From IMG/VR virus record IMGVR_UViG_3300009131_000001, positions 17,814 to 81,813 of that record: a DNA stretch of 64,000 bases; one strand, 5' to 3'. The notes beneath the pieces were generated by a model. The model was not told where the DNA came from, did no database searches, and was given only the letters and a program-made list of their open reading frames with translations. Position numbers and translations under genes: made by a program. Of the stretch, positions 2,325 to 58,480 are shown in pieces. The DNA is from a virus (Duplodnaviria > Heunggongvirae > Uroviricota > Caudoviricetes). Position 1 is the first letter of the stretch, and every line of letters begins with the position of its first letter.

Positions 2325-2360
2325 GGGAAGATATTAATATAGTATCTTCCCTTATTTATT
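2325..2360. terminator. Bidirectional rho-independent terminator between convergent gene blocks
   Basis: Perfect inverted repeat gggaagata/tatcttccc (9 bp) with a 9-nt loop. It is followed by ttatttatt on the plus strand and an A/T run on the minus strand. It lies between the stop at 2280 (+) and the stop at 2359 (-). Confidence 0.6.
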
Positions 2361-3252
2361 AACCACAACTAGAATACCCTCGTACACTACCAGTATTCCC
2401 GCAACTAGAATAATTTGGAACTGTAGGAGATGAATATAAAACATCCATTGGATTGTAAAATTCTACAGGTTTTCCAAAATTCCAATCTTCATATAATATA
2501 CCATCTGGTTGATATATTAATTCATATATAAAGTTTACATGATTAGATGGTTCATTAAGAGAGTACTTGAAATTTACAGGCATTCCCTTAATAAGTTTAC
2601 TATCTAACTTACATACTGGGCAACTATCTTTTCTAATGGACTTTACATTTGAAAATAAGTCATGTAATTTAAAATTATCCAAATTATCTGAATTATAGTT
2701 TTTTCTAAATGTCACAGAAGAAGCCCCAACTTTAAAAGCAAAATCTACATAATCATATAAATATTGTTTATCTCCAAAATTCTCTTCTACTACACAATTT
2801 ATATTAACTGGAATTCCTACATCATTTAATTTCTTACAAATAGTAGTAAGTTTTTTAGTACTTGGAACATCTTTAGTATTAAATATTTTATAGTTTTCTA
2901 TATCATCTATAGAATGTCTAGAAATATTAATATAACGAACCTTATTTTTCAGTATATCTATAACATTTGAAATATTACCCCCATTACTAGTAAGCACTAC
3001 TTTTGGGAAATTATATCTTGAAATAGTTTCTAAAGTAGGTGTAAGAAACTCACTATATGTAGGTTCTCCTCCTGATATTGAACATTGTGTAAATATATCA
3101 GGTAATATACTAAGATAATGGTTAAGTCTAGATAAGTAAGTAACATCTGTATAACTAGGCTTCCAAAAACAAAATCCACAATTAGCATTACATCCTCCAG
3201 GAAGAATTACTGTTAAATTTGGGGATTCTTGTATTGATTTTTTAAGTTTCAT
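2359..3252 (-). CDS. Radical SAM enzyme, viperin/MoaA-like
   Basis: CNANCGFCFW forms a CxxxCxxC motif with an aromatic residue, as in viperin CNYKCGFCFH. SISGGEP is the SAM glycine motif. VVLTSNGG and ISRHSIDDIEN parallel viperin VSIVSNGS and ISCDSFDEEVN. The C-terminus is Cys-rich (CPVC ... SSCG ... SSCG). Confidence 0.7.
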   Translation of the reverse strand: MKLKKSIQESPNLTVILPGGCNANCGFCFWKPSYTDVTYLSRLNHYLSILPDIFTQCSISGGEPTYSEFLTPTLETISRYNFPKVVLTSNGGNISNVIDILKNKVRYINISRHSIDDIENYKIFNTKDVPSTKKLTTICKKLNDVGIPVNINCVVEENFGDKQYLYDYVDFAFKVGASSVTFRKNYNSDNLDNFKLHDLFSNVKSIRKDSCPVCKLDSKLIKGMPVNFKYSLNEPSNHVNFIYELIYQPDGILYEDWNFGKPVEFYNPMDVLYSSPTVPNYSSCGNTGSVRGYSSCG

Positions 3253-4024: not shown

Positions 4025-4207
4025 CTAATTTCTATCTACACCATCAATATATTCACCAGTAGCATCCCATGTAGGACATTTATATCCATTATAGAAATTA
4101 AATAATTCTGAATCTATTAATTCTTCTACACATAGTAGTAACAAAGAATCTTTATTATCAGTATCTAAAGTACTTATCCATTCTTGTAACCTCTCAGTTC
4201 TAGTCAT
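4025..4207 (-). CDS. hypothetical protein
   Basis: Tightly packed co-oriented ORF in the early block. Confidence 0.35.
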   Translation of the reverse strand: MTRTERLQEWISTLDTDNKDSLLLLCVEELIDSELFNFYNGYKCPTWDATGEYIDGVDRN

Positions 4208-4218
4208 TTTATTTAGTT

Positions 4219-4437
4219 CTATATATTATGAAAATCTATATAATAATTATCACCAATTTTAATAGCATCTACTTCTTTATAATCCACATATTCACAATAT
4301 TCGTGTGATTTTAATTCTTTCAAACTAATATCCCCTAATTTTTTCTTATTAGTAACATCATACACTACTGAAAACCCCATTTCGTGAAAAGCACAATAGT
4401 CCCCACTAATTTCAATATATACTCTAATTTTTTCCAT
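4219..4437 (-). CDS. hypothetical protein
   Basis: Co-oriented ORF, 2-nt spacing to its neighbour. Confidence 0.4.
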   Translation of the reverse strand: MEKIRVYIEISGDYCAFHEMGFSVVYDVTNKKKLGDISLKELKSHEYCEYVDYKEVDAIKIGDNYYIDFHNI

Positions 4438-4439
4438 AA

Positions 4440-4625
4440 TTATACTGTTTTATCAAATACTTTAACTTCAGCAAATAATACATTCAAATATAAAAATTCT
4501 TTGCTGACATTAATTGAAAATAATGATCTACTAAAATCCCAATGAGGTCTTTCAAGTCCACAAAAAGCTAAGTAAAATCCATTATAGGAATTCCACTCAA
4601 AATTAAACAATGTAAATCTCTCCAT
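4440..4625 (-). CDS. hypothetical protein
   Basis: Co-oriented ORF. Confidence 0.35.
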   Translation of the reverse strand: MERFTLFNFEWNSYNGFYLAFCGLERPHWDFSRSLFSINVSKEFLYLNVLFAEVKVFDKTV

Positions 4626-4862: not shown

Positions 4863-5471
4863 TTATTCAGTTTTATTTGTTATTAATTCAGACATAGGAA
4901 GAGTTTCTATCCATTTACAGAAATCTTGCCACTCTTGAAGCTTATGATGCTTGCGCTGTGAATAAATAGTTTTAAGTTGAAGATAGTTAGTTGATATACC
5001 CATCCATTTTAAATAACCAGATGGTAAATTCTCAATTATTCTTTTAAAACATATTTCTTTCTCGTCTAAAAATAACGGCGAATTATATGCCCTTATAGAA
5101 CCATTAATCAATTCTATAATACCATCATGTACATTGTTAGTAAAATCATCTTTAGTTAATTCTCTGCTAGTAATTTTATGCATCTTACTCTGAGAACTAA
5201 CAATGTCTACCCAGTGGTATCTTTGTAATTGTGGGCTAAAATATTCAGGATATTGTAGGTCAAATTGAACTATAATTCCTTTAAGGAAATTATTATGTCC
5301 TGAACCACTTGGTGTATTTGCTAGCTTTTTAGCTCTATTAGTATCCCCATTACATATAGATGATATGGCTTCCGACTTATCTAAATCTTTAGGTTCCCCA
5401 ACTTGCATTGGATAACCACTACGAACTAAGCTTTCTGCCAATCCGTAAATTTTTATATTTTTAATTTTCAT
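4863..5471 (-). CDS. Hypothetical protein with a faint ThyX-like resemblance (not supported)
   Basis: 202-aa ORF. GHNNF...IIVQF...QRYHW loosely recalls the ThyX N-terminal region but lacks the RHR motif. Confidence 0.45.
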   Translation of the reverse strand: MKIKNIKIYGLAESLVRSGYPMQVGEPKDLDKSEAISSICNGDTNRAKKLANTPSGSGHNNFLKGIIVQFDLQYPEYFSPQLQRYHWVDIVSSQSKMHKITSRELTKDDFTNNVHDGIIELINGSIRAYNSPLFLDEKEICFKRIIENLPSGYLKWMGISTNYLQLKTIYSQRKHHKLQEWQDFCKWIETLPMSELITNKTE

Positions 5472-6420
5472 GCAATAGTTTAAAAATTACGCCTTTATAT
5501 TTGTTATTGCCTTTATAGGACTTACCAGACTTTAATAGTTTTTCTATTGTTTTTCTATTAATTCCTGTATATTCTGATGTTTTTATTATATTATCAAACT
5601 GTAATATTTGATTATCATATTCAAAGGTAATTGGAACCCATTGTGAAGATTTTGTATTTTTTCTATTAAATTTCTCAATTCTGTATTTATCAAAAGGATC
5701 ATCTGGATATCTCCAAACAAAACCGTATGCAGATAGTACTTTTCCTTTAGAACATCTTACTATAGGTTGATATTTAAATCCAAGGTTCCTCTCTATTTCC
5801 ACAGAACTTGTAAAAGTTTTTATAAAATTTCCATCTATGTCATATTGATTTATTGGTTTAGATATCCTTAAAATATTTTTTTCTGACATTTTCTTTCCAG
5901 TATTGGCAATACTTATCTTAAGTTTTTGCTCTTCAGATAATTTCTTACCTAATCTAGATAAAGACATATTCTTTCGCCATTCAGGTGTTCTTGGTATATT
6001 ACGTAATGATTTTGAAAGTTTATCTATAGTCTCTTTTCTTCTTTTTACTCCTAAACATGATTTTTCTACTATTTTACAAATATTCATATCTGGATTAATG
6101 ATGTCTATATAATGCTGCTCAAATTTCATACATTCTTCTGCATCACAATAATGAATAACATATGCTTTAATATTATAGCATTTATTATAAATATTTTGCA
6201 TGAACACATTATAATGCTTATTTCTATGTAATAACCATTTATGTTGATTTATTCTTTCAGATAATCCTAATTTATTTGCTGTGCTACCAATATACAAATG
6301 ACTACCAATTTTTATTAAATATATACCAGTACTTCTATTTATTTTTTTAACTATTACTTTCCCATTACATTCCTCAATAATTTTCTCTAGTTCTTCTATA
6401 TTTTTTATATTGTTATTCAT
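5461..6420 (-). CDS. GIY-YIG homing endonuclease with NUMOD3/IENR1-like DNA-binding repeats
   Basis: GIYLIKIGSHLYIGST is a GIY-YIG core. NUMOD3-like EEQKLKISIANTGKK and a C-terminal IENR1-like YTGINRKTIEKLLKSGKSYKG are present. Confidence 0.75.
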   Translation of the reverse strand: MNNNIKNIEELEKIIEECNGKVIVKKINRSTGIYLIKIGSHLYIGSTANKLGLSERINQHKWLLHRNKHYNVFMQNIYNKCYNIKAYVIHYCDAEECMKFEQHYIDIINPDMNICKIVEKSCLGVKRRKETIDKLSKSLRNIPRTPEWRKNMSLSRLGKKLSEEQKLKISIANTGKKMSEKNILRISKPINQYDIDGNFIKTFTSSVEIERNLGFKYQPIVRCSKGKVLSAYGFVWRYPDDPFDKYRIEKFNRKNTKSSQWVPITFEYDNQILQFDNIIKTSEYTGINRKTIEKLLKSGKSYKGNNKYKGVIFKLLHEN

Positions 6421-6549
6421 ATAAGTTATTATAATATTAGGTTATTTATTTAAGAGAATCTAGCCCATAAGGAAGTCTTAAAGCCTCAAACATTGCCCTA
6501 AGACCTCCCATGTCAATTAATTCTACTTCTAGTCTTTTATTAATTTTCA

Positions 6550-7603: not shown

Positions 7604-7851
7604 ACTATTTGATTTTTAACTCTTCTAATATCTTCATAGTTAACAACATATCTTTCCCTACCCATCCAATCTGACCCTGTCCAAGTTTCAGTAGTAACTT
7701 CTGCCACAGTAACACATAAATCAACAGTTTGATTACATGCTTCTCTCATAGCATTTAAAATCTCTTGTTTAAAAGCATCAGATTTAGTTTCTATTCCAAC
7801 TACTTTGTCAAGTATTTCTTCAAGGTTAATTATCCTCATTATCCAACTCAA
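7600..7851 (-). CDS. hypothetical protein
   Basis: 4-nt overlap coupling. Confidence 0.4.
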   Translation of the reverse strand: MSWIMRIINLEEILDKVVGIETKSDAFKQEILNAMREACNQTVDLCVTVAEVTTETWTGSDWMGRERYVVNYEDIRRVKNQIV

Positions 7852-8020
7852 TTACTAGTTTATCACTTTTCTTTTTGTAGTTAACCTTTTTAAGATTCTG
7901 CTTCTTCTTACCTAGTACAAATTCAATAGATAAATCTTTATCATCTATTAAATGTCTTTTATACTTAGCACTTGCCCCATCCTTAAATGTCTTTCCCATA
8001 CTTATAAGTATAACTTGCAA
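7826..8020 (-). CDS. hypothetical protein
   Basis: Lys-rich small ORF. Confidence 0.3.
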   Translation of the reverse strand: MQVILISMGKTFKDGASAKYKRHLIDDKDLSIEFVLGKKKQNLKKVNYKKKSDKLVIELDNEDN

Positions 8021-31555: not shown

Positions 31556-32416
31556 CTATTTATTCATATTCATAATAATACCTTGTCCAGAACCTAGCAT
31601 TGTTTCTGGCAATTTACCATTCCACTTTTGAATCCATTGTTGTTGTACCAATAAGGCATTTAAAGTAGTTTGTTTCAATCTATTAGCTTCTGCTTCTGCT
31701 CTAGCAATTGCAAGAAGTGCTTTAGCTTTACCTTCTGCTTGCGCTACTTCAATAGCTGCCTGTGCTTCAGCAGTTCTCTTTTCATTTTCAGCTTTTTGCG
31801 CTAATTGCGTTGCTTGTACTTTACTATTAAGAGCCTCTTGAACAGATTGCGGAATTCTCACAGAACCTATTAAATATAGATTATCTATAAATATTCCACT
31901 AGGCATTAGTTGATTTTTTACTATAATTTTTACAGTATCAATCATTTTAGACTTTCCTGCTCCATATACAGATTCTACAGGCATTGTAGAAGCTACTTTA
32001 TTTAATGCATCTCTGATTGAATTCCTAACAACTACTGCCCTAATTTCATCAACCCCTTTTCTATAAGTTTGAAACATTTTAGCAATACTAGCTTGTTCAA
32101 AATGCATTGAAACTCCTAAATCAGCAGAGCATTCCATACCTTCAACTGTCTGAAATACAAACTGCTCATTAGCAGGAGAGCCTTCATCTGATGAAGATGT
32201 ATACGTATAGTTTACCTGAAATGTAGGAAATGTAAATAATTCAGTATTAATTCCGATATAATATCTACCGGGGCCTACTACTTCATCATCAACTCCTTTA
32301 TCAGAACCTAACATATTAACCTTAATTCCTGCATAGCCAGATTCTACCTTATCCATACAAGATGTAAAGAATGTTACGCACATCCCAAAAACTAAAAATA
32401 AACTTACTTTTCTCAT
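31556..32416 (-). CDS. SPFH/band-7 (prohibitin/HflKC-like) lipoprotein
   Basis: Signal peptide plus lipobox FFTSC. The SPFH core is ...VVVRNSIRDALNKVASTMPVESVYG.... The C-terminus is an Ala/Glu-rich coiled coil (AEAQAAIEVAQAEGKAKALLAIARAEAEANRLKQ) typical of band-7 proteins. Confidence 0.65.
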   Translation of the reverse strand: MRKVSLFLVFGMCVTFFTSCMDKVESGYAGIKVNMLGSDKGVDDEVVGPGRYYIGINTELFTFPTFQVNYTYTSSSDEGSPANEQFVFQTVEGMECSADLGVSMHFEQASIAKMFQTYRKGVDEIRAVVVRNSIRDALNKVASTMPVESVYGAGKSKMIDTVKIIVKNQLMPSGIFIDNLYLIGSVRIPQSVQEALNSKVQATQLAQKAENEKRTAEAQAAIEVAQAEGKAKALLAIARAEAEANRLKQTTLNALLVQQQWIQKWNGKLPETMLGSGQGIIMNMNK

Positions 32417-44004: not shown

Positions 44005-45000
44005 ATGGGTAGAGTAAGAAAAATAGGAGTCTATAAAATTACTTGTAATATTACTGGAATGTCTTATATAGGACAGAGTAATGATGTTTATAGAAGATTG
44101 AGATTTTATAAATCTCTGAGATGTAGGCAACAACCAAGAATTTACAGATCTCTATCTAAGTATGGCATAGATAATCACATATTTACAATCATTTGGGAAT
44201 CTACCTATAGTAGTAAACACATAATATTACAAAAGGACACTCTTAATATTTTGGAAAAATTTTACATATTTAAATATAATACCCTATCTCCCAATGGGTT
44301 AAATTTGTATTCTGGAGGAGATTCTTATACAGCATCTGAAGAAACTAGACTTAAATTAAGTAAATCTAAAAGTGGTATAAATCATCCAATGTATGGAAAG
44401 ATTGGAAAATTAAATCCAGCATCAAAGGAGGTTGTGCAATTAAGTAAAGATGGAGAGTTTATAAAAGATTGGGAATCTGCAACTGTTGCAGAAAAGACTT
44501 TAAATATAGCTAGAGATTTAGTATCAGCATGTTGTAGAGAAGATAGATATAGTACTAATGGGTATATATGGATGTGGAAAGCAGATTTTGATACTTACGG
44601 GCCAAAAATATACAAATTACCAAAAAGAAAAGATAGTCTATCAAAGAAGACTTATCAATATGATTTACAAGGTAAATATTTAAGAGAGTGGAATTCTACT
44701 ATGGATATAGAAAGAGAACTTAATATTGCAAATACATCTATAAGTAATGTATGCACAAATCAAAAAGGACAGGCTGGAGGATTTCAATGGAGATACTTTA
44801 TAAATGAAAATGGTATAAATGAATATATTACTAAGGGATTTCATGTAGTAGTTACAGATATAGATACAGGACTAATTCAAGAGTTTGAAAGTCTAGCTAA
44901 AATAAGTAAGACCTTTAAAATAAAGTGGTATATAATTAAAGAATGTTGCGAAGGTATTAGGAAATATTATAAAAATTATAAATTTAGTTATAAATATTAA
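44005..45000 (+). CDS. GIY-YIG homing endonuclease with NUMOD-type DNA-binding repeats
   Basis: GVYKITCNITGMSYIGQS is a GIY-YIG core. NUMOD3-like TRLKLSKSKSGINHPMYGK. Repeated IENR1/NUMOD1-like segments (KEVVQLSKDGEFIKDWESATVAEKTLNIA; LREWNSTMDIERELNIANTSISNVC). Confidence 0.7.
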   Translation: MGRVRKIGVYKITCNITGMSYIGQSNDVYRRLRFYKSLRCRQQPRIYRSLSKYGIDNHIFTIIWESTYSSKHIILQKDTLNILEKFYIFKYNTLSPNGLNLYSGGDSYTASEETRLKLSKSKSGINHPMYGKIGKLNPASKEVVQLSKDGEFIKDWESATVAEKTLNIARDLVSACCREDRYSTNGYIWMWKADFDTYGPKIYKLPKRKDSLSKKTYQYDLQGKYLREWNSTMDIERELNIANTSISNVCTNQKGQAGGFQWRYFINENGINEYITKGFHVVVTDIDTGLIQEFESLAKISKTFKIKWYIIKECCEGIRKYYKNYKFSYKY

Positions 45001-45901: not shown

Positions 45902-46095
45902 TGTTTATTATAAGATTTCATTTTAGAAATGTAGACGAATCTATAGATTTTATAGAACAATCCAAATCTATGTTAGAAGGATTTGACTATAAGATTAATA
46001 TAGAGGATAACGGTAAAATAGTTAAAGTTGAAATATTAAAACTAAAAGATAAAGTAATATGGGAAGTAAAAGGAAAGTGTTTTTATATGAACTAG
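45901..46095 (+). CDS. hypothetical protein
   Basis: 64-aa ORF with ATGA-type overlap. Confidence 0.35.
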   Translation: MFIIRFHFRNVDESIDFIEQSKSMLEGFDYKINIEDNGKIVKVEILKLKDKVIWEVKGKCFYMN

Positions 46096-47312
46096 CAACT
46101 GGTAAGACTATAGAATTTAATAGTCAGACTTCTGCTGGAGAGTTTTTACATGTTAGTGAAGCAACAATACGTAAGTATAATAATACTCTTAAAGAGATTG
46201 ATGGGTATAGAATATATAGTGGAGATAAAGTAGCACTTGCTGGAGAATCCTTATTAAATAGTATTAATGACCATAAAGAAACAAATGAAAACATTAATAC
46301 TAATGAGTTGGATTCAAGGATAAGTGAATTAGGTTATTCTAAATCTGATATACAGTCTGTTAAAACTTGGCAAACCCAGAAAGGTGAGACTAGATTTAGT
46401 ATTGTAACTAAACCAGATCAAGTTAATTCTGAAGAATTCCTGGAGAATCTTAAGAATAAGTTATCTGAATCCGTCAAACCATTTGAGATTCAACTTACAC
46501 CTGCTAAAGTTAGTGGGGTAGATTTAATAGTTTATACTTCAGATAAGCATGTTGGGGCTTGTAGTAAAGATTCTCAATATAATAATGAGTATAATGAGAT
46601 GGAATTTACTCGTAGAATGCAACAAATCTATCAAGAAATTGCATATGTAAAATTTGAATTTGGGCATATTAATAGTCTAATATTTATTGATTTAGGGGAT
46701 AATCTTGATGGGTATAATGCTCAAACTACTAGAGGTAATCATCCACTACCCCAGAATATGACTGATGAGGAATCATTTGATACTTATGTAAATGTACATA
46801 AGATATTCTTTGATAGTTTGGTAGAAAATAGTATGGCTAGTGAGTATAAGGCATACTTTGTAAATGATAGTAATCACTCTGGAAGTTTCGGATATACTGC
46901 AAATAGGGCATTGGAGATTTATCTTAATGTTAAGTTTCCATTCATAGAAACTATTCAGATGAATAAGTTTATGGAACATTTTATTCTAGGAGATGATTGC
47001 TATATTCTATGTCATGGTAAAGACAAGATTGATAGAAAGAATGGATTACCATTACATCTTAACGATGGTACTTATAAGTTAATATCTGACTACATTGACT
47101 ATAATAAGTTACATAATTATAACGTACATTTTGTAAAGGGGGATTTACACCAGAGTGCTTTTGAAAAGAATAGTAAGTTTACTTATAGGAATATACCTAG
47201 TGTATATGGTGCTAGTAAGTGGATTATGAATAACTTTGGATTGAATAAGCCTGGATTCTCAATGGATGTTTATCATATGGGGAATATTTATAGAAGAGAT
47301 ATTGAACTTTAA
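46059..47312 (+). CDS. calcineurin-like metallophosphoesterase with an N-terminal NUMOD1/IENR1-like DNA-binding module
   Basis: MPP motifs in order: DKHVG (D.H), GDNLDG (GDxxD), NDSNHSG (GNH-like), CHGKD (GH), GDLHQS. The N-terminal YELATGKTIEFNSQTSAGEFLHVSEATIRKY resembles homing-endonuclease DNA-binding repeats. Confidence 0.65.
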   Translation: MGSKRKVFLYELATGKTIEFNSQTSAGEFLHVSEATIRKYNNTLKEIDGYRIYSGDKVALAGESLLNSINDHKETNENINTNELDSRISELGYSKSDIQSVKTWQTQKGETRFSIVTKPDQVNSEEFLENLKNKLSESVKPFEIQLTPAKVSGVDLIVYTSDKHVGACSKDSQYNNEYNEMEFTRRMQQIYQEIAYVKFEFGHINSLIFIDLGDNLDGYNAQTTRGNHPLPQNMTDEESFDTYVNVHKIFFDSLVENSMASEYKAYFVNDSNHSGSFGYTANRALEIYLNVKFPFIETIQMNKFMEHFILGDDCYILCHGKDKIDRKNGLPLHLNDGTYKLISDYIDYNKLHNYNVHFVKGDLHQSAFEKNSKFTYRNIPSVYGASKWIMNNFGLNKPGFSMDVYHMGNIYRRDIEL

Positions 47313-48146: not shown

Positions 48147-48555
48147 ATATTACACACCTAGTATTGAGGAATTTAGAATTGGGTTTGAGTATGAAGTGTA
48201 TATTCCAGAAAAAGAATTGTGGAGTAGTGAAACTTTTTATTTAAACCAATCTCATATTGATATTATAAAATATGTAGATATACAAACAGAAAATACTTTA
48301 AGACGAGTAAGAGTAAAATATCTAGATAGTTCTGATATAGAAAGTTTTGGGTTTGAATATAGTCATACTCCAAGAAAAAATGTGCTATTATTTAAAAGTA
48401 ATGAATATAATTTGTGGTTTGAAATGGATTTTAATTTTGTTAGAATAAGAAATACTAAAGAGATACTTCCGGGGAATATTCAATTGTTTTTTGGGAAGAT
48501 TAAAAATAAATCAGAACTACAACAAGTTCTTAAAATGATAGGAGTTATAGAATAA
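48136..48555 (+). CDS. hypothetical protein (paralog of 47323..47730)
   Basis: See 47323..47730. Confidence 0.5.
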   Translation: MENKYYTPSIEEFRIGFEYEVYIPEKELWSSETFYLNQSHIDIIKYVDIQTENTLRRVRVKYLDSSDIESFGFEYSHTPRKNVLLFKSNEYNLWFEMDFNFVRIRNTKEILPGNIQLFFGKIKNKSELQQVLKMIGVIE

Positions 48556-49122: not shown

Positions 49123-52100
49123 ATGGATTATACCAAACTAAATAAGTATCAAACATTAATAACTCCAGAACTAGAAAAGTCTTTACCTAAAGAAGTTTAT
49201 GCAGAACTTATCAATACTATTGATACTATTCCTTTTGTTAATTGGTTAGTACAACCTGAAGAAGTTAGGGGATTTGCTAAAGATAGGGTTAGGCATAAAG
49301 ATTTAGATGATTCTGATGAAAGAAAGCAATATGATGATAATAGGATAGTTGTAGATGTAACTAAACCTCATATACTTGAGGATATGGATTTCTTTAGGGA
49401 AAGGGCTATATTCTTTGATAAGTATGGATGTTATACAGATTTAACTCCTAATCCTAATCCTAATAGTGATTACGCTTTATTTTGGAAGGAAGAAATTAGA
49501 AGGTGGAAGGATGGATTAATTAAACCTAGTGATGGAGAATGGATTCCAGGAGGATTGTACTTTTATTGGAATTATTGTCCAATATGGCAAACCCAAACTG
49601 ACAGTATAACTATAAAAGGTAGAACTAAATCTAGGGCTAAACGTGTTAAAAAATTCCCTAAACCTTGGTTAGGAGATTATTTATTTTATCATTATATAGA
49701 ACAGGCTCAAGAATATGCACTACATGGTAAACTTCTAAAATGTCGTGGCGTTGGATTTAGCTTTAAAATGGGGAGTTTATCTCCTAGAAATATGTATGTG
49801 TATCAAGGTGAAGGAAATCCTAATTTCCATTTGGCTAGTGATAAAGGATTTTTACAGGGTGATAAGGGAGTATATAGTAAAGTAATCACTGTATTAGACT
49901 GGATTGCAGATACTACCCCACTCCCAAAATTAAGACTTGTGAATAGTGCTAGAAGTATGGAAATTAAACTGGGCTATCAAGATGAATATGGGGTAAATAG
50001 AGGCCCTCAGTCTAGTGTATTTGGTATATCTCTTAAGGATAATCCGGATAAGGCTCGGGGTATTCGCGGGCCTTTAGTCCATTATGAGGAAGATGGGCTA
50101 TTTCCTAATCTAGAAGATGCATGGAATATTAATCTTAAATCTGTAGAGGATGGTGACGAATCATTTGGTTTTCAATTAGCTGGCGGGTGTTTAACTGAAA
50201 ATAATTATGTATGGACTCATAATGGAAGTCTAAAAAGAATTAAAGATCTTAAAGTATCTGATGGTATAATAGGATTTAATAATGATAATCAAACTTTTAC
50301 TAAAGAACCTATTACTTATTTACAACCTACTATTAATAAACCTTGTTTGAGAATAGAAACTAATACTGGAAGATTTATTGAATGCAGTACAGATCATCCT
50401 ATACTGTACAGTCATTCTTTACTCTTTAAAAGAGAAGAACTACCTTCAGTAAATGGTAAAAGAAAAAGAAAGACATTTAAAGTAGTATCATTTAATCCTG
50501 CAAATAATTTAGTAATAGGAGACCAAGTAGCAACATTAGATCAGTTTCCCATATTTTCAGACATAGATATGTGGAATCCCAGACTAGTTGGATGGTTAGT
50601 AGGTGATGGTAGTTATGGTATAGATAAGACTCCAGTATTATCTAATTGTGAAGATGAGATAAATAGTTGGTTACATAATAATTTTAAAGATGATGTAACT
50701 ACAGAAAAATCATATATAACTAAGGATGGTAAAACTTATGAAGAAAATAGAATAAAAGGTATCACTAAAGAATTACGTAAGTTAGGGATATATGGACAAA
50801 CCAAATCAAATAAAAGACTTCCAATAGACATACATAATTACTCATTGAACACAGTCACGGAGTTTATAGGGGGATTTTATGATACTGATGGATATATTTC
50901 AAATACAGGTAGAGTTTCTTTATCCTCAGGACATAAAGAAATCTTGTTAGAAATGCAATTGTTATTACAAAAATTAGGTATTCATGGAAATATTATGTAT
51001 GTTAAACCAAATTTTAAAAACCCAAAAAGTAAAAATGGACATTATAATCTAGAAGTAGCAGATAGAGATAGTTTATTAAATTTTCAAAAGCACATAAAAC
51101 TATCTCCTAAAGTAAAAGCAGAAAGACTTGCTAATATTCATAATTTATATAAAAGTAAATCTCAACGTGCAAAACATCTTTCTGGAGTAAGATTTGAAAG
51201 AGTAGTTAAGATTGAGAATATAGGTATTCAACCTGTTTATAATTTAACTGCTGGAGAAACACATACTTATGTAGGAAATGGAATTATTACTCACAATACA
51301 GGAGGTACAGAAGGGGCTAGTTTTGAGGGTTCTGAGAAACTATTTTATCATCCAGATGCCTATAATATATACGGAATAAGTAACGTATATGATAGAAATG
51401 TAAATTCTGATTTAAAGTGTGGTTTCTTCTGGGGAGCATACTTAAATAGAAATAAGTGCTATGATTTAGATACAGGAGAACCTGATGTAATAAAGGCATT
51501 GTGTCAAATTTTACAAAATAGGTATAAAGTAAAAAATAATTCTACAGACCCCAAAGCAATTACTCAAAAAAAGGCCGAAGAACCTATTACTCCACAAGAG
51601 GCTATCATGCGTAGGGAGGGGAATATATTTCCTGCTGAAGATATTAAGAACTATCTTGCTGAAATAATGCCTAACTTCCAAAACTTTGTTAGTAGTCACT
51701 ATGTAGGCAAACTAGTTATTAATACTTCTGGAGATGTAGAGTGGAAACTAAATGAAGGTAACTTATACCCTATTAGGGATTTTCCATTTTTAGATGGTAA
51801 TAAAGAAGGTGCTGTAGAAATATATGAAATGCCTAAAAGATTTGGTAATGGGGAAATTCCTGTTGGTAGGTATATTTGTGGTATAGACCCCTATGACGAT
51901 GAAACTGGTACTTCATTAGGCAGTATATTTGTATTTGATAGGTGGAGTAGATGTATAGTTGCAGAGTATACTGGTAGACCTAGATTTGCAGATGAATTCT
52001 ATGAGATTTGCTATAGATTAGCCAAGTATTACAATGCAATGATAATGTATGAGAATAATAAGAAAGGATTATTTGTATATTTTAGAAATAAGAATATACT

Positions 52101-52512
52101 TCATATGCTGGCAGATGTTCCTAAAATACTTACTGATAAGCAGTCTTTAAAACCTGATACATTATATGGGAATAAATCCAAAGGGTTCAATGCCACTGCT
52201 GAAGTAAATACATTCTTAAGAACTGCTCAAGTTAAATGGATGTGTGAACCTTTAATGGATGATGAAGGAAACCCTAATGGATTGACTAGACTACATAAGA
52301 TTAGAAGTGTTGCATATCTTAAGGAGTGTGCTAGTTGGAATAGTGATGGTAACTTTGATAGGGTTAGTGCTATGGGAGCAGTAATGCTGTATGATTTAGA
52401 ATTAGGTAATGTAGAGATTAAAAGAACTACTGAACAAATTAAAACTAGAGCACATGATAAATATTTTGATAAGTTCTATGGAAACAAATCTAAAATGTTA
52501 AATACATGGTAA
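49123..52512 (+). CDS. terminase large subunit interrupted by an intein
   Basis: The C-terminal RNase H-like nuclease domain (YICGIDPYDDETGTSLGSIFVFDR...IVAEYTGR...EFYEICYRLAKYYNAMIMYENNKKG) is typical of TerL. A 370-aa intein is inserted after ...FQLAGG. Confidence 0.65.
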   Translation: MDYTKLNKYQTLITPELEKSLPKEVYAELINTIDTIPFVNWLVQPEEVRGFAKDRVRHKDLDDSDERKQYDDNRIVVDVTKPHILEDMDFFRERAIFFDKYGCYTDLTPNPNPNSDYALFWKEEIRRWKDGLIKPSDGEWIPGGLYFYWNYCPIWQTQTDSITIKGRTKSRAKRVKKFPKPWLGDYLFYHYIEQAQEYALHGKLLKCRGVGFSFKMGSLSPRNMYVYQGEGNPNFHLASDKGFLQGDKGVYSKVITVLDWIADTTPLPKLRLVNSARSMEIKLGYQDEYGVNRGPQSSVFGISLKDNPDKARGIRGPLVHYEEDGLFPNLEDAWNINLKSVEDGDESFGFQLAGGCLTENNYVWTHNGSLKRIKDLKVSDGIIGFNNDNQTFTKEPITYLQPTINKPCLRIETNTGRFIECSTDHPILYSHSLLFKREELPSVNGKRKRKTFKVVSFNPANNLVIGDQVATLDQFPIFSDIDMWNPRLVGWLVGDGSYGIDKTPVLSNCEDEINSWLHNNFKDDVTTEKSYITKDGKTYEENRIKGITKELRKLGIYGQTKSNKRLPIDIHNYSLNTVTEFIGGFYDTDGYISNTGRVSLSSGHKEILLEMQLLLQKLGIHGNIMYVKPNFKNPKSKNGHYNLEVADRDSLLNFQKHIKLSPKVKAERLANIHNLYKSKSQRAKHLSGVRFERVVKIENIGIQPVYNLTAGETHTYVGNGIITHNTGGTEGASFEGSEKLFYHPDAYNIYGISNVYDRNVNSDLKCGFFWGAYLNRNKCYDLDTGEPDVIKALCQILQNRYKVKNNSTDPKAITQKKAEEPITPQEAIMRREGNIFPAEDIKNYLAEIMPNFQNFVSSHYVGKLVINTSGDVEWKLNEGNLYPIRDFPFLDGNKEGAVEIYEMPKRFGNGEIPVGRYICGIDPYDDETGTSLGSIFVFDRWSRCIVAEYTGRPRFADEFYEICYRLAKYYNAMIMYENNKKGLFVYFRNKNILHMLADVPKILTDKQSLKPDTLYGNKSKGFNATAEVNTFLRTAQVKWMCEPLMDDEGNPNGLTRLHKIRSVAYLKECASWNSDGNFDRVSAMGAVMLYDLELGNVEIKRTTEQIKTRAHDKYFDKFYGNKSKMLNTW
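50188..51297 (+). mobile_element. Intein with a LAGLIDADG homing endonuclease domain inside the terminase large subunit
   Basis: It starts with Cys (CLTENNY) at 50188 and ends ...GIITHN at 51297, followed by Thr (+1). Two LAGLIDADG motifs are present: LVGWLVGDGSYGID and FIGGFYDTDGYIS. The length of 1110 nt is in frame. Confidence 0.75.
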
Positions 52513-52568: not shown

Positions 52569-55106
52569 ATGATAAAGGAATCATCTGCAATGGGAGTTCA
52601 AAGTGTTAACTTTTTCCCAGCACAAATGCTTACTGATAAAGAAAGAACTGATGATTTCTATCAGCAGTGCATTGATGCTGGATTAAGTATAGTTAACTGG
52701 AACCTCAACTTATATAGTTCAATTGGTGTAAGAAACACCAGAAAGAATAAGATTATCAACTACAATCTTTTCAATGATATTGTTGATAGAGAGGAAATGA
52801 ATAGGGTTATTAATCCTTGGGGATTTGATGATGTTGCCAAACTTCCTAGATATAAGAATTACTCTTTACTAAATAGTAGTCTGATGTTGCTATTCGGTGA
52901 GGAAAGAAGAAGGGCATTTAATCCTATTGCTACATCTATTAATAGCGATGCGGTTAATGAGAGATTACGAACTATTAATAATGCTTTTACTCAAACTGTA
53001 ACACAATCACTTATAAATCCAAATGAATCTCCTGAAGAAACTGAAAGGAAGATGCAGGAGTTTGGTAAGTGGGCTAATTTTGAGTATAAGGATAGAAGGG
53101 CTAGAATGGCTCAACAGGTTATTAACTACTTATACAGGACTGACTATGCTGCGGAGACTTTTAGTAGAGGATTTGAGGATTTACTAATTGCTGGGGAGGA
53201 GATATATTTTGGAGATGTTATAGGTAATAAACCTGTACTTAGAAAGGGTAATCCTTTAAATACGTATAGTTTGAGAGCAGGTACATCCTATAAGATAGAA
53301 GATTCAGATATTATTGTTGAGGATGGGTATTTACCTTTGGGAGAAGTTCTTGATAGGTACTATGATGATTTATCACCTAAAGAAATAGATGCACTACAAC
53401 AAGGATTTAGAATATCTACAGGTAAAGGGCTTATTCAGGGGCAAGAGGCTAACCCAGTATTTGACCCAAGTCTAATATTTGGAGTAGAATTAAATGGTAA
53501 TATATTTAATCCCAATAACTCTGATGTATCATATTTTGCTGGAGGATTTGATGTTCAAGGTAATGTTAGGTGTACTAGAGTTCTTTGGAAGGGTATGAGA
53601 AAGGTAGGCTCACTAGAAACTACTGACCCTGAAACAGGTGAAACCATTAAGAAGTATGTAGATGAATCCTATAAGCCTAACAAAATGTTAGGTGAAAAGA
53701 TAGAGTGGATGTGGCTATCTGAATGGTTTGAAGGTACTAAGATTGGTAATAATGTGTATACCAGAATGAGACCTTGTCCAGTACAGTTTAGAAGTATGGA
53801 TAATCCATCTATCTGTAAGCCTCCTGTGGTAGGTATAGTTGTTAATGTTAATGCTAATAAGGGTAGAAGTTTGGTTGATATGACTAGGGAATATCAGTAC
53901 CTATATAATGCTCTTATGGCAAGAATGGAAATGACTATGGTTAAGGATAGGGGTAAAATGGCTAGACTAGATTTATCCTTAATTCCTGATGGTTGGGAAA
54001 TGGATAAGTGGATGTACTATGCTGAGGTATTAGGTTGGCAAGTAGTAGACCCATTTAATGAAGGGCAGAAAGGTGCAGCCACTGGTAAGTTAGCAGGAGC
54101 AATGAATCAGAATTCTTCTTCTATAGATTTGGAACAGGGGCAATACCTACAAAGAACTCTACTAATGGCAGATTTCATTGCTAGAAGAGTTGAGGATATA
54201 ACGGGTATTAACCCACAAAGAAAGGGGGCTGTAGATAATAGGGAAACTGTTGGAGGTGTTGAGAGGGCTGTAACTCAGAGTTCTATGAGTACTGAAAAGT
54301 GGTTTGTACTACACGATAATGTTAGAATTAGAGCATTAAAGATGTGGCTAGAACTTGCCAAGTTTGCTTGGAGAAATGAGCAGTTTAAGAGGCCATATAT
54401 TATGGATGACGGTAGTATGGGTATCTTGGATTTTGACTATGAAACATTTGTAGAATCTGAGTATGGTATAGATATTACTTCAAGTAGTGCTGATATGGAA
54501 ATGACTCAAGCACTTAAGCAACTTGCACAACCATTTCTACAAAATGGGGGTAATCTATCAATTGTTGCAGATTTGTATAGAACTACAGACCCACAAAGTC
54601 TACAGAGAAAGATTGAGGCTTATGAGCAACAGATTGCAGATAATACTAGACAGACTCAGGAGCAGCAGAATCAGATACAAATGCAGCAAATTGAACAGGC
54701 TAGTGCTCAAGCAGAAGCTACTGCACAAAGAGAGTATGATTTGGAAATGGCTAAACTTGACCTTGAAAGGTATAAGATTGATACTGAAGCATCTACTAAG
54801 ATTCAGGTAGCACAAATGGCTACTTATAATAAGAGGGAGGATATTGACTTAAATAAGAATGGTATTCCAGACCCAATGGAAATTGCTTCTAATGCTTTAA
54901 ATGCTAGAAAACAAGAGGCTGATGAATTTCAGAAGGAGTTAGATACTACATTAAAGTATAAGTTAGAACAGGAGAAAATGGATTTAGAGAGAGAGAAAAT
55001 GCAACATGATAAAGAGTTGCAGGATAAGAAGGATAAAGCAGCAATGGCTAGAGAGAAGTTGAAGGCTAGTACAGCACGTAAAAATAAAGTTTCAGGAGAG
55101 AAATAA
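52569..55106 (+). CDS. portal protein (probable)
   Basis: 845 aa, immediately after the terminase. The C-terminal Q-rich coiled segment is common in portals. No decisive motif. Confidence 0.5.
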   Translation: MIKESSAMGVQSVNFFPAQMLTDKERTDDFYQQCIDAGLSIVNWNLNLYSSIGVRNTRKNKIINYNLFNDIVDREEMNRVINPWGFDDVAKLPRYKNYSLLNSSLMLLFGEERRRAFNPIATSINSDAVNERLRTINNAFTQTVTQSLINPNESPEETERKMQEFGKWANFEYKDRRARMAQQVINYLYRTDYAAETFSRGFEDLLIAGEEIYFGDVIGNKPVLRKGNPLNTYSLRAGTSYKIEDSDIIVEDGYLPLGEVLDRYYDDLSPKEIDALQQGFRISTGKGLIQGQEANPVFDPSLIFGVELNGNIFNPNNSDVSYFAGGFDVQGNVRCTRVLWKGMRKVGSLETTDPETGETIKKYVDESYKPNKMLGEKIEWMWLSEWFEGTKIGNNVYTRMRPCPVQFRSMDNPSICKPPVVGIVVNVNANKGRSLVDMTREYQYLYNALMARMEMTMVKDRGKMARLDLSLIPDGWEMDKWMYYAEVLGWQVVDPFNEGQKGAATGKLAGAMNQNSSSIDLEQGQYLQRTLLMADFIARRVEDITGINPQRKGAVDNRETVGGVERAVTQSSMSTEKWFVLHDNVRIRALKMWLELAKFAWRNEQFKRPYIMDDGSMGILDFDYETFVESEYGIDITSSSADMEMTQALKQLAQPFLQNGGNLSIVADLYRTTDPQSLQRKIEAYEQQIADNTRQTQEQQNQIQMQQIEQASAQAEATAQREYDLEMAKLDLERYKIDTEASTKIQVAQMATYNKREDIDLNKNGIPDPMEIASNALNARKQEADEFQKELDTTLKYKLEQEKMDLEREKMQHDKELQDKKDKAAMAREKLKASTARKNKVSGEK

Positions 55107-55108
55107 CT

Positions 55109-55606
55109 ATGAAAAGAATATCAGAAGAATTAGAGAAGAGAATTAACATCCATATAGAACTTGAGGAAAACTCCTCAAGGCTCTATAGGGCTATGGGAGA
55201 ATGGTTTGAGTACAATGGTTGGTTTAATGCTGCAAAACTTTGGAAGAAGTATGCAGATGAAGAAATGGCACATTGCAGTAAGTTTTATCAGTATCTACAG
55301 GATAGGGATGTTTTACCTGTAACTCCAATGGTTAAAGAACAACCTAATGAGTATGAGTCTATGGAGAAGATTATAGAGGCATCTTATAAGCATGAAATTG
55401 AGGTAAGTAAGGAATTATCCAAAACTGCAACAATGGCTTTAAAGGAAGGTGATTTAACAGTATTTGGATTTATGCATTGGTTTATTCAAGAGCAAATTGA
55501 AGAAGAATCTAAGATGATGGCATTCTTGGATAGAATTGATATGCTTAAACAGACTAATACTAGTCTATTCTTTATGGAAGAGGCTTTTGAAGAAGCTTTA
55601 GGATAA
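55109..55606 (+). CDS. ftn: ferritin-like protein (bacterial non-haem ferritin Ftn type)
   Basis: Ferroxidase-centre pattern E..Y...EE.AH...Y; YKHE is identical to the E. coli FtnA segment YKHEQ; DLTVFGFMHWFIQEQIEEE matches DYPTFNFLQWYVSEQHEEE. Confidence 0.75.
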   Translation: MKRISEELEKRINIHIELEENSSRLYRAMGEWFEYNGWFNAAKLWKKYADEEMAHCSKFYQYLQDRDVLPVTPMVKEQPNEYESMEKIIEASYKHEIEVSKELSKTATMALKEGDLTVFGFMHWFIQEQIEEESKMMAFLDRIDMLKQTNTSLFFMEEAFEEALG

Positions 55607-55695
55607 TATTATGTTATACGTGAAAATTAAAACTAATAAATAAATTGTAGAAGAATTTAACTTTTAAGTTCTTTGCTCAAAGAAGAAGGAAAATT

Positions 55696-56892
55696 ATGGC
55701 AGGAATGTTTGATGTAGATTTTAATTCTGACCCACAAGGTGAGTTGGAAATGAATATTGATGAAATAGTCAATTTAAAAGGTAGTGAAGATTCATCTACT
55801 GAGGAAGAAAAAGTGGATGATAATAGTAAAGAAAAAGTAGATAATACTGATTCTGATGAATTAAATCTTTCAATAGATGAAATTATTAAATTAGATTCTA
55901 TTGAAGATGGTGAAGTAAAAGAAGATAATAATGAAGAAATAAAGCCCTCTTCTGCAACAAAAGAGACTGCTAATTCCTTCCTTCTTCTCAGTAAAGCTCT
56001 TGCAGAAGAGGGTATTTTATCTGAATTTGATGAAGAAGGTTTCGGAAAATTAGTGGAAGAAACAGGTAGTGGTGGTAAAGCACTACTACAGTTAGTAAAT
56101 GCTAGGGTAGAAGAAATGGAAAAATCCATTAAAGAAACCTACGAAGAAGACTATAAGACATACTTACAGCTAAAAGAATCTGGAGTACCACAAGATGAGG
56201 CATTTGAGTTAACTAATTTAAGCTCTCAACTAGAACAGATTGATAATGATATTCTAGAAGAATCCGAAGAAACTAGACGTGGTATTCTAGAAATGCATTT
56301 TAAGAATACTACTAAGTGGGATGATTCAAGGATATCCAAGCATATTGATAAGTTGGTAACTAATGGTGAGGACATTGATGAGGCAAAGGAGGCATTGCCA
56401 GAACTTCAAAAGCATACTAAAGAGGCTATTCAGAGTAAACAGAGTGAGTATGCTAAGTACCAAGAGGATTTAGCAAAGCAACAGGAAGAGGCTGCTAAGG
56501 ATATTAGAGATACTTTCAAAGCAGACGCAGAAATTGTTAAGGGAGTTAAGCTTACAAAGACTCAAGCCATTAAGGCTCAAGAATTACTTTTAACCCCAAT
56601 CAAGTTGGAAGATGGCAGTATAACTAATCCTTTGTGGGCTGAAAGGGCAAAGAATCCTTTAGAGTTTGATAAGAAGATTGCAGCACTATACGCTGCCGGA
56701 GCATTTGAGGGCAATATAACAACTGCAAAAGCAAGTAAAAAAGTTGCTCTGGATGAATTAGATAAAGTACTTAAAACTGGTAGTAAATCTTCATTTAAGG
56801 GAAATACTGCTGCTAATACAGAAGTTATTGATGAGCAGAAACAACTTCTAGATGATAAGTTTATGCGCTCAATAAGAAGAAATAACGAATAA
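55696..56892 (+). CDS. scaffolding protein (probable)
   Basis: 398 aa, very acidic, highly helical and low in complexity, sitting between the portal and capsid candidates. Confidence 0.5.
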   Translation: MAGMFDVDFNSDPQGELEMNIDEIVNLKGSEDSSTEEEKVDDNSKEKVDNTDSDELNLSIDEIIKLDSIEDGEVKEDNNEEIKPSSATKETANSFLLLSKALAEEGILSEFDEEGFGKLVEETGSGGKALLQLVNARVEEMEKSIKETYEEDYKTYLQLKESGVPQDEAFELTNLSSQLEQIDNDILEESEETRRGILEMHFKNTTKWDDSRISKHIDKLVTNGEDIDEAKEALPELQKHTKEAIQSKQSEYAKYQEDLAKQQEEAAKDIRDTFKADAEIVKGVKLTKTQAIKAQELLLTPIKLEDGSITNPLWAERAKNPLEFDKKIAALYAAGAFEGNITTAKASKKVALDELDKVLKTGSKSSFKGNTAANTEVIDEQKQLLDDKFMRSIRRNNE

Positions 56893-56913: not shown

Positions 56914-58413
56914 ATGGGATTTCAAGTAAGTAAACTGCAAATTACAGAACCTAAATACTGGAGTAACTTTACCAGTATGGATCACCTGGCTGCTATGGGT
57001 AACTATCAGCCTGAATACATTAATCAAACCTTGGAATATCTGTATGATGTAAACTACGGATATAACTTTGGTAGTATGATTAATAAGCTACCTGTTCACT
57101 ATATTGATAATGGTGAAATGAACTATAGATGGGCAATGATTGGTGGAGAGGAAAGACCTATTCCACTAGTAAAAGCCTCTCTTGATGCAACTGGTACTGC
57201 CCTTAATGCAACAGACAAACCAGGTCAATATGGTGCCAGCTTCTACATGTGGTTTGCTGAACCATATTTTACTGCTACAACTACTTTACTTGGTTCTAAA
57301 CCAGAAGCATATGTAATTAGATGTAAATCTGATGCTATTCAGGTAGGTGATTTATATCGTCATGAAGTAGAATTACTTACGTCAAATCCAGCATTCTTTG
57401 TACCTGTTGCAGACCTTATTGCAGACAGCCTATGGAATGAAGGATGGGGGCAAGTAGAACAAGCCCTCTCTAAGAGGGGTAATGGTATCCATCATGGTAC
57501 TCACTTCATGTTTGAGAATACCCTTAATGTAATTCGTAAGAACTATGAAGTTCCTGGTAATGTGCTGCGTAATGGTACTCAAAATAACCCACTTGCATTT
57601 GCATTTAAAGATTTGGAAACTGGTCAAACTAGTAAGAAATGGATTGATAAGCAAGCTTGGGATTTCTATCGCCAGTTTAGAAATGATGCATATAGACTAG
57701 ACCTCTATGGTAAGTCAAATAAGCAACTTGATGGTTCTTATGGTAATAGAGGTGAATCTGGTAATGTAATTAAGTCTGGATTTGGTCTATATGAGCAAAT
57801 GAATAATAGTAATATTCTATACTACAATAAGTTTAGTATTGATGCATTACTTGACTTTGTACTTAGTGTTACTGTAGGTAAGTTCCGTGAAGACCAGCGT
57901 AAACTTGTTGTTACTTGTGGAGAATATGGAGCAGTTCAATTCCATAAGGCACTACTTGCTAAACCAGGTGCATCTAGCTTCTTCAGAAGTGATTATCCTC
58001 TTGAGAAAGCTGCTAATGGCAAGTTAGGTTGGAATGAGGGACAATTCACTACTATTAAGTGGGTTAATGGTATTGAGATTACCTTGGTAATTGATAGCCA
58101 AAAAGACAGCCCTTTCCATACTTTGAAGCATCCTGATGGAGGTAATGTTGCATCTTATATCTATGATATCTTTGACTTTGGGCAAACTAATGGTCAGGCA
58201 AATATCATGCGTGTAATGCAACGTAACTTTGAAGAAACCTTCGGTTATATTCCAGGTATGTTTGACCCATTTACTCCTGGTGGTAAGGCTGGTAATCCTA
58301 AGACTATTACCTCTTCTGTAGATGGTTACTCAGTATATGGTTGGAAGCAACGTGGTATTATGATTAAGAATCCTCTTAAGACAGGTAGGTTTATTCCTGC
58401 AATCTATAGATAG
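56914..58413 (+). CDS. major capsid protein (candidate)
   Basis: 499 aa, immediately after the scaffold, with GC-richer 'highly expressed' codon choice. A strong terminator follows it. Confidence 0.45.
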   Translation: MGFQVSKLQITEPKYWSNFTSMDHLAAMGNYQPEYINQTLEYLYDVNYGYNFGSMINKLPVHYIDNGEMNYRWAMIGGEERPIPLVKASLDATGTALNATDKPGQYGASFYMWFAEPYFTATTTLLGSKPEAYVIRCKSDAIQVGDLYRHEVELLTSNPAFFVPVADLIADSLWNEGWGQVEQALSKRGNGIHHGTHFMFENTLNVIRKNYEVPGNVLRNGTQNNPLAFAFKDLETGQTSKKWIDKQAWDFYRQFRNDAYRLDLYGKSNKQLDGSYGNRGESGNVIKSGFGLYEQMNNSNILYYNKFSIDALLDFVLSVTVGKFREDQRKLVVTCGEYGAVQFHKALLAKPGASSFFRSDYPLEKAANGKLGWNEGQFTTIKWVNGIEITLVIDSQKDSPFHTLKHPDGGNVASYIYDIFDFGQTNGQANIMRVMQRNFEETFGYIPGMFDPFTPGGKAGNPKTITSSVDGYSVYGWKQRGIMIKNPLKTGRFIPAIYR

Positions 58414-58439
58414 TAATTCTAATTGTTTGTAAAATGTTA

Positions 58440-58480
58440 AATAGGTGGTAGTTTATTCTATCACCTATTTTATTTTTAAT
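58440..58480 (+). terminator. rho-independent terminator after the capsid-candidate gene
   Basis: aataggtg/cacctatt 8-bp stem, followed by TTTATTTTTAATTT. Confidence 0.5.

Follow-up and report, generated by a model that had tools for sequence, protein, structure and literature searches.

Why does a gene for a ferritin lie among the head genes of a tailed phage, and what would its product do there? The question is raised by the stretch of viral DNA that we have analysed here as a whole (64,000 nucleotides, "the window"), where a first-pass annotation, made from the sequence alone, had placed an Ftn-type ferritin gene between the portal gene and the scaffold gene.

The ferritin and its ferroxidase centre

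The gene is located at positions 55109..55606 of the + strand and encodes a protein of 165 aa, with an ATG start, a TAA stop and the motif MKRIS at the N-terminus of the product. The protein matches the Pfam family PF00210 (Ferritin) over residues 10-145 with 87.1 bits (E=1.4e-24), above the gathering cut-off of 24.5 bits, and a phmmer search of the PDB with the same ORF has matched 127 ferritin sequences, with E of about 1e-25 at best, the top ones being bacterial non-heme ferritins; FtnA of E. coli (PDB ID 1eum) is aligned over residues 6-159 with E=2.4e-24. The two blocks by which the gene had been recognized as FtnA-like in the first-pass annotation, YKHE and WFIQEQIEEE, both align with FtnA: SYKHE (residues 92-96) is aligned with TYKHE, and WFIQEQIEEE (residues 124-133) is aligned with WYVSEQHEEE. 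The Ftn-type assignment is confirmed by these matches.

The residue numbering of the window ferritin is that of FtnA+2, as read from the PDB alignment, and in this register the set of ferroxidase and site-C residues is complete, with ten of the ten FtnA positions retained: E19, Y26, E51, E52, H55, E96, E128, Q129, E131 and E132. The di-iron ligands E19, E52, H55, E96, Q129 and E132, together with Y26, correspond to E17, E50, H53, E94, Q127, E130 and Y24 of FtnA, and the site-C ligands E51, E128, E131 and E132 correspond to E49, E126, E129 and E130. All ten residues are invariant across the alignment of 17 close homologues, and the full pattern is also the commonest one among the wider homologues, where it is kept in 166 of 194 sequences; the lack of ferroxidase-centre residues that the first-pass annotation had named as a refutation is not observed.

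The AF2 monomer model of the protein (pLDDT 95.7) has helices at residues 6-35, 39-65, 85-112, 116-148 and 153-164, i.e. a four-helix bundle, in which helices B and C are joined by a long loop, plus a short fifth (E) helix, and the comparison of the model with 24-mer prokaryotic ferritins by Foldseek gives TM values of 0.89-0.94. The ORF encodes a true Ftn-type ferritin whose ferroxidase centre is complete; its product would most likely assemble as a cage of 24 subunits with a di-iron ferroxidase centre. The score against the NCBIfam equivalog model for FtnA (NF007638) is 91.9 bits, below the cut-off of 178, and the protein is therefore classed, by the NCBI rule, as a divergent ferritin and not as an FtnA orthologue in the strict sense. 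In PHROGs, the ORF matches phrog_16594, which is annotated as 'unknown function'.

Other members of the superfamily have been considered and ruled out as identities of the protein. Bacterioferritin (Bfr), which we take to be marked by a second histidine (ExxH in helix D) and by the heme-binding Met52, does not agree with a helix D that reads EQIEEE, where Q129 and E132 form the Q-x-x-E that we take to be the Ftn pattern, and the best PDB and NCBIfam matches are non-heme ferritins. Dps proteins are 12-mers with an inter-subunit ferroxidase site and without an E helix; the NCBIfam Dps models are unmatched by the window protein, its E helix is present and its top structural matches are 24-mer ferritins. 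An encapsulin-like cargo protein has been rejected on the length, which is that of FtnA, and on the C-terminus, which is aligned without a targeting extension.

The head-gene neighbourhood and its conservation

The ferritin gene is located in a string of genes on the + strand. On its 5' side lie the large terminase (TerL) gene (49123..52512; phrog_6681, E=1.6e-100), split by a LAGLIDADG-containing intein (Pfam LAGLIDADG_3, Intein_splicing and Hint), and the portal gene (52569..55106; 845 aa, TAA stop; phrog_6547, E=1.8e-123). Only 2 nt separate the portal stop from the ferritin ATG, and a purine-rich AGGAGA (55094..55099, +), a possible ribosome-binding site, is located within the 3' end of the portal gene, 9 nt 5' of that ATG. 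On the 3' side, a spacer of 89 nt (55607..55695, +) leads to an acidic ORF of 398 aa (55696..56892, +), which is followed by the gene for a crAss-type major capsid protein (MCP; 56914..58413, +; PF23898 Crass_capsid, E=1.3e-101; phrog_11589) and by a terminator-like hairpin (58439..58470, +), with a 13-bp stem and then a T-run; this hairpin is the sole terminator-like site of the + strand in the interval 48-60 kb, and the first one downstream of the ferritin gene. The acidic ORF has no match in Pfam or PHROG, and we call it scaffold-like by position and composition only, an ORF of 370-436 aa being located just 5' of the MCP gene in every relative examined; with the word scaffold understood in this manner, the position that had been described for the ferritin gene is borne out.

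With a crAss-type MCP, a portal and a TerL in its late-gene block, the window is the DNA of a crAss-like (Crassvirales-type) phage. The best GenBank matches of the MCP are from Crassvirales (IAS virus, cr112_1 and PhiCrAssBcn), at no more than 30% identity, and no similarity to the window at the level of DNA has been found among GenBank phages. The window has a GC content of ~25-37%, and its genes switch strand near 40 kb; the GC content of the ferritin gene is inside the local range.

Several other genes of the window are mentioned here for completeness. The TerL intein extends over ~50180-51300, with Hint, Intein_splicing and LAGLIDADG_3 covering residues ~353-727 and the PHROG TerL matches restarting at residue 721. 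GIY-YIG, NUMOD1 or NUMOD3 domains occur in three free-standing genes of the homing-endonuclease type (44005-45000, +; 46059-47312, +; 5461-6420, -), of which two are within the late-gene block, 5' of TerL. An SPFH/Band-7 family protein is encoded in the replication-side block (31556-32416, -; PF01145, E=2.6e-18), and a radical-SAM protein is encoded at 2359-3252 (-; PF04055, E=5e-10), the MoaA, viperin-like and NrdG models being matched weakly, far below their cut-offs.

The same position has been compared in related phages, where loci are referred to by our own labels (L) and ferritin lineages by P numbers. A word-indexed protein search has returned only 18 ferritin homologues at E<1e-5, all of them metagenomic, and two close ferritin loci were found in IMG/VR. 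In the context look-ups of L003 and L006, the order is portal, small ORFs, ferritin, an ORF of ~400 aa and Crass_capsid, and the ferritins are 49-51% identical to that of the window. A scan of IMG/VR with an MCP profile has yielded 72 related loci, including 41 distinct contigs with a readable portal-to-MCP interval. Of these 41 contigs, 27 have no gene in the slot that separates the portal gene from the scaffold-like gene, 10 have a ferritin there (L001, L002, L035-L038, L040, L041, L043 and L076) and 4 have a DnaQ-like exonuclease. The relatives with the exonuclease are distant ones (L061 2633-3622, L071 3514-4515, L072 3742-4671 and L075 3620-4576), and its family is PF13482, DnaQ-like 3'-5', with a C-terminal zinc ribbon; as the exonuclease replaces the ferritin in these distant relatives, the portal-scaffold slot is a hot spot for accessory genes. 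On a neighbour-joining (NJ) tree of the MCPs, the ferritin carriers are located in at least three lineages, interleaved with lineages whose slot is empty.

An exhaustive phmmer search of 1.84 billion representative proteins has given 1,958 matches at E<=1e-3, and the genomic context has been looked up for ten of the top-hit lineages. In seven of the ten (P0010, P0014, P0023/P0170, P0025, P0026, P0037 and P0038), the ferritin is located directly after the portal and 5' of Crass_capsid, i.e. in the same slot, and the ferritins of these seven are 35-49% identical to the window protein in global alignment. A single ORF of ~400 aa lies between the ferritin and the capsid gene in six of the seven slot lineages; L111 (P0037) has an extra ORF of 314 aa between the ferritin and the ~400-aa ORF. 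Over all searches, the order portal, ferritin, scaffold-like gene, MCP occurs at L001, L002, L003, L006, L035-L038, L040, L041, L043, L103, L105-L107 and L110.

In two of the ten lineages, the ferritin is located elsewhere among structural genes: L109 (P0034; ferritin at 5331-5864) is another crAss-like phage, with the CrAss_Ring_1 and CrAss_Ring_2 families nearby, and L004 (P0017; ferritin at 4052-4588) is a 97-kb contig of unconfirmed crAss-like status, where PHROG virion-structural and tail-like matches flank the ferritin, which clusters with Maribacter ferritins at 91-93% bootstrap. In the remaining lineage (P0027/L108; ferritin at 6001-6495), the gene is part of the tail module of an unclassified phage, 5' of a phrog_5302 tail protein. 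A 476-aa protein of L004 has been tried as a crAss MCP, and hhalign has found no relationship, nor is this protein related to the tail protein of 494 aa at L108.

The placement had been called unusual, and it is so among phages at large: a tblastn search of 50,697 GenBank phage records has returned five weak ferritin matches, none of them in a crAss-like phage, and hardly any sequenced phage has a classical ferritin; no crAss-like phage in culture or in GenBank carries the gene. For this ferritin family, however, the portal-scaffold placement is the rule, and its conservation across relatives appears to be newly recognized here. The GenBank matches H1-H3 have been set aside, as they come from UNVERIFIED contigs of 46-59% GC, without crAss head genes.

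Other ORFs have been observed next to the ferritin in particular loci. At L006, an 87-aa ORF between the portal and the ferritin (7706-7969) has collagen-like Gly-X-Y repeats (PF01391, E=8.5e-9), and the ORFs just 3' of the ferritin at L109 (5997-7154) and at L111 (3146-4090) have a sub-threshold match to calcineurin-like metallophosphoesterases (PF00149, E ~3e-3).

Inheritance and transcription of the slot ferritin

In the pairwise comparison of 12 slot loci, the identity of the ferritins is correlated with that of the MCPs (Spearman 0.78) and of the portals (0.72), the value between MCP and portal being 0.73, and a Mantel test of ferritin identity against head-gene identity gives r=0.79 with p=2e-4; the 12 loci include phages with MCPs that are only 25-30% identical to the window MCP. 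Among close relatives, dN/dS is 0.05-0.06 for the ferritin and 0.03-0.06 for the portal, values that show strong purifying selection on the ferritin in the phage.

These results bear on the reading of the gene as one without a selected role in the phage, be it a neutral passenger (moron) or a contaminant of bacterial or assembly origin. The contents of the slot vary (empty, ferritin, small ORFs or exonuclease) and L076 carries a very different slot ferritin, with 27% identity, as might be expected of a passenger; a dN/dS of ~0.06, the co-divergence of the ferritin with the head genes and a gene GC within the local range all speak against it, and contamination or an assembly artefact is ruled out by the same layout in many independent assemblies (JGI, ENA and Logan). 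The reading is strongly disfavoured, and we regard it as highly improbable.

The deep nodes of the NJ tree of the ferritins have less than 50% bootstrap for the monophyly of the slot ferritins, so that the tree shows neither monophyly nor a donor lineage, and the case for a single ancient acquisition rests instead on synteny and on the Mantel test; these favour a capture long ago, after which the gene was inherited vertically and repeatedly lost. The ferritin is old but dispensable, the slot being empty in 27 of the 41 MCP-retrieved relatives, a count that also fits an accessory role. As is the case for phage auxiliary genes, cellular homologues exist and the presence of the gene varies among related phages. 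A pattern scan of GTDB, with one genome per species, has confirmed 25 cellular relatives, all from Bacteroidota and 31-36% identical; the patterns bias the retrieval, and the link to a Bacteroidota host or origin is suggestive only.

A further element that accompanies the slot is the motif KR[ILV]S, located just before helix A in all slot ferritins except that of L076 (with ER in P0026) and present in 48 of the 194 sequences; chromosomal Bacteroidota ferritins, FtnA and the L076 ferritin are without it. The L076 ferritin (2423-2911), which is only 27% identical to that of the window, is separated from the remaining slot ferritins in 92% of the NJ bootstraps and may have reached this slot by a second capture or by replacing another ferritin.

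Local variations also occur among the slot ferritins. The slot-resident proteins of L105 (6001-6504) and L106 (5021-5524), which belong to P0170/P0023, and that of P0022 have the replacements E96T, E128D and E131H/K, with Y26F in addition in P0023. Three crAss-like phages that are deeply diverged have slot ferritins of 185-188 aa (L107 2593-3153, L110 6001-6567 and L111 2586-3143), in which the N-terminal segment, through KR[IV]S, comprises 20-28 residues that are rich in Lys, Pro, Gly and Ser, with a net charge of +3 to +5.

With regard to expression, the first-pass annotation had proposed co-transcription with the head-gene cluster at a late, high level. The ferritin gene is likely to be co-transcribed with the genes for head and packaging proteins, given the 2-nt gap to the portal gene and the lack of a terminator-like hairpin on the + strand before position 58439. 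The level is another matter, because a putative promoter is located 3' of the ferritin in relatives: 24 of 32 distinct relatives have the box TAnnTTTG at a distance of 15-50 nt 5' of the scaffold-like gene, compared with 3.3% of control positions, and the box reads TATATTTG in most of them, often with TTTG ~20 nt further 5'. We take TAnnTTTG/TATATTTG to be the Bacteroidota -7 promoter consensus, which was reportedly described by Bayley and colleagues in 2000, and the box is probably a Bacteroidota-type promoter for a unit of the scaffold-like gene and the MCP gene. In nine of 14 ferritin loci, the box is located between the ferritin and the scaffold-like gene, and most of these loci have no box directly 5' of the ferritin. 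On this comparative reading, the ferritin would belong to the TerL-portal transcription unit and not to the high-output scaffold-MCP unit, the box being 3' of it, and a separate promoter would boost the scaffold-like gene and the MCP; the claim of high-level expression is weakened accordingly.

In the clade of the window, GTTCTTTG is located at 55668-55675 (+), where relatives carry TATATTTG, with ATTG at 55644-47, 20 nt 5'; the two elements correspond by position to the conserved promoter, in a degenerate form. A candidate promoter with the pattern TTTG-N17-23-TAnnTTTG is located at 48411..48439 (+), 5' of the TerL-portal-ferritin string. The strict Bacteroidota pattern has five matches in the window against 4.1 expected, which is not significant alone, and a scan of the window for the sigma-70 consensus has given 55 matches against 52.7 expected from shuffles. 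The promoter signal is significant only comparatively, in the relatives, and promoters of the window itself are established by neither scan.

Two observations on the same interval can be added. An inverted repeat, TTCTTTG-ct-CAAAGAA (55669-55684), overlaps the degenerate -7-like element and is located just 5' of the purine-rich leader of the scaffold-like gene. The loci with the TATATTTG/TAnnTTTG box include L003, L006, L010, L013, L035-L041, L073, L076, L077, L103 and L105.

Proposed function and known systems

The family membership, the intact catalytic residues, the fold, the purifying selection, the conserved synteny and the co-divergence with the head genes are shown by the analysis. The explanation that we favour, and to which we give about an even chance of being correct, is that of a functional Ftn ferritin, acquired anciently, kept vertically and made late, which would sequester Fe(II) in the cytoplasm and thereby protect the phage DNA. 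According to this explanation, an ancestor of a broad, uncultured group of crAss-like phages of Bacteroidota would have acquired the ferritin long ago, and vertical descent would since have kept the gene in its place 3' of the portal and 5' of the scaffold-like gene. It would be transcribed late, together with the terminase and the portal, and its subunits would assemble into a 24-mer cage that oxidises and sequesters free Fe(II), presumably in the cytoplasm of the infected cell. Fenton chemistry would be limited during the replication and packaging of the phage DNA, at a time when host iron proteins are being dismantled or an oxygen-sensitive host is under stress, and a Bacteroidota host under oxygen or iron stress might be kept productive until lysis.

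Several findings run counter to this explanation. The low bootstrap values of the deep ferritin nodes and the score below the FtnA equivalog cut-off are among them. The ferritins of L004, L108 and L109 are also located inside structural-gene modules, which would not be expected of a purely metabolic role, and in the slot sublineage of P0022 and P0023/L105/L106 the residues E96, E128 and E131 are replaced, as is Y26 in P0023; these replacements suggest that ferroxidase activity may not always be the selected trait.

The locations in structural modules and the altered ferroxidase centre count in favour of a ferritin that is associated with the virion, as the first-pass annotation had also suggested, or with DNA, i.e. 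located in the capsid, or bound to DNA or to the portal during packaging through a basic N-terminus on its exterior, providing the encapsidated DNA with Dps-like protection from iron-catalysed damage or being delivered with the genome. The region of the portal and scaffold genes is a frequent site of genes for internal or minor head proteins, and the position of the ferritin between the portal and the scaffold-like gene is fixed even though the MCPs are only 25-30% identical. The residues K2-R3 are invariant in the 17 homologues, and the tails of L107, L110 and L111, with 20-28 residues and a net charge of +3 to +5, recall the Lys-rich DNA-binding tail of E. coli Dps. The window protein itself, however, has the 165-aa length of FtnA, with neither an extension nor a targeting peptide relative to cellular ferritins; a 24-mer of 12 nm is too large to exit through the portal; and the slot is empty in most relatives, so that the ferritin is not needed for assembly. 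Ferritin-superfamily proteins have nevertheless been reported in the particles of phage G (PMC12484599) and, as gp217, of Vi01-like phages (PMC10892097). Taken together, we consider an association with the virion or with DNA unlikely. In its boldest form, the slot ferritin would be capsid-internal or DNA-associated throughout a large environmental group of crAss-like phages, as a cage or sub-assembly that the basic N-terminus tethers and that accompanies the packaged genome or protects it from iron-catalysed damage; for this form our expectation is low, and if it were true, this would be the first classical ferritin as a virion component.

The cytoplasmic sequestration that we favour also has to be weighed against the use of the ferritin as an iron reservoir, which would buffer iron and later release it for iron-dependent enzymes of the phage or the host, such as a phage radical-SAM enzyme or Fe-S proteins. 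The window does contain a radical-SAM gene (2359-3252, -), and so does L108, an unrelated phage locus, close to its ferritin; that of the window, however, is part of a non-late block on the opposite strand, whereas the ferritin is in the late block, and a scan of IMG/VR with the window radical-SAM protein has found no relatives, so that no co-occurrence is established. Late synthesis would also be an odd timing for the building of a store, and we regard a reservoir as very unlikely.

Last, the location of a gene for an iron-binding protein in the structural region is the sole support for a 'Ferrojan horse', an idea raised for Vi01-like phages (PMC10892097), where an iron-loaded protein on or in the particle exploits the iron-uptake receptors of the host at adsorption. 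The window ferritin is located in the head module and not in a tail module, it has no receptor-binding feature, and the study of the Vi01-like phages has found no dependence on TonB or FeoB (PMC10892097); we find this mechanism hardly credible for the window ferritin.

Whichever mechanism applies, the best matches of the window ferritin in the library of 1.84 billion proteins are mostly phage genes at one fixed place of the head module. They point to an undescribed, deeply branching crAss-like group from non-gut samples, and offer a widespread and tractable case for how phages handle iron and oxidative damage in assembly, and for whether iron proteins travel in virions. The searchable literature has yielded no description of a classical ferritin from a crAss-like phage, and the closest known systems resemble the slot ferritin in part.

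The prokaryotic Ftn proteins, i.e. E. coli FtnA (1eum) and the chromosomal ferritins of Bacteroidota, share with the window protein the Pfam family, the length, the four-helix bundle with the E helix and the A/B and site-C ligands. The window ferritin differs from them in sequence, its identity with the cellular ferritins found being only 28-36%, in its score, which does not reach the equivalog cut-off of NCBIfam, and in its KR[ILV]S N-terminus, and its gene is part of a phage head-gene string instead of a chromosomal regulon for iron or oxidative stress.

Among viruses, Dps (DPS) and Mn-catalase genes are carried by 'Gratiaviridae' and Lactobacillus phages (PMC8008677), and a Dps-like, ferritin-like DNA-binding protein has been found in the particles of phage G (PMC12484599). 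These are likewise phage-borne members of the ferritin superfamily with a proposed role against oxidative or iron damage, whereas the window protein is a classical Ftn by sequence and by fold. The ferritin-like genes of giant viruses (NCLDV), which have been read as part of virocell metabolism (PMC7136201), also represent iron storage encoded by a virus; as described, they belong to eukaryotic viruses and have no link to a capsid module. Gp217 of Vi01-like phages, for which Phyre2 gives a ferritin fold (threading at 22% identity) and which has been detected by mass spectrometry (PMC10892097), is another ferritin-like protein of a phage structural operon, in this case the tail operon of a myovirus; the GenBank phage search has found no sequence relationship between gp217 and the window ferritin.

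The arrangement at the locus is also reminiscent of encapsulins with Flp or IMEF cargo, where a ferritin-superfamily gene is likewise located just 5' of the gene for an HK97-fold shell; here, however, the C-terminal targeting peptide is missing, a scaffold-like gene intervenes and the shell is a DNA-filled phage capsid, so that the resemblance is one of layout only. The family of the protein is thus well known, and what is unexpected, in comparison with all of these systems, is its apparently ancient residence in the head module, where it co-diverges with the head genes across a broad group of undescribed environmental crAss-like phages.
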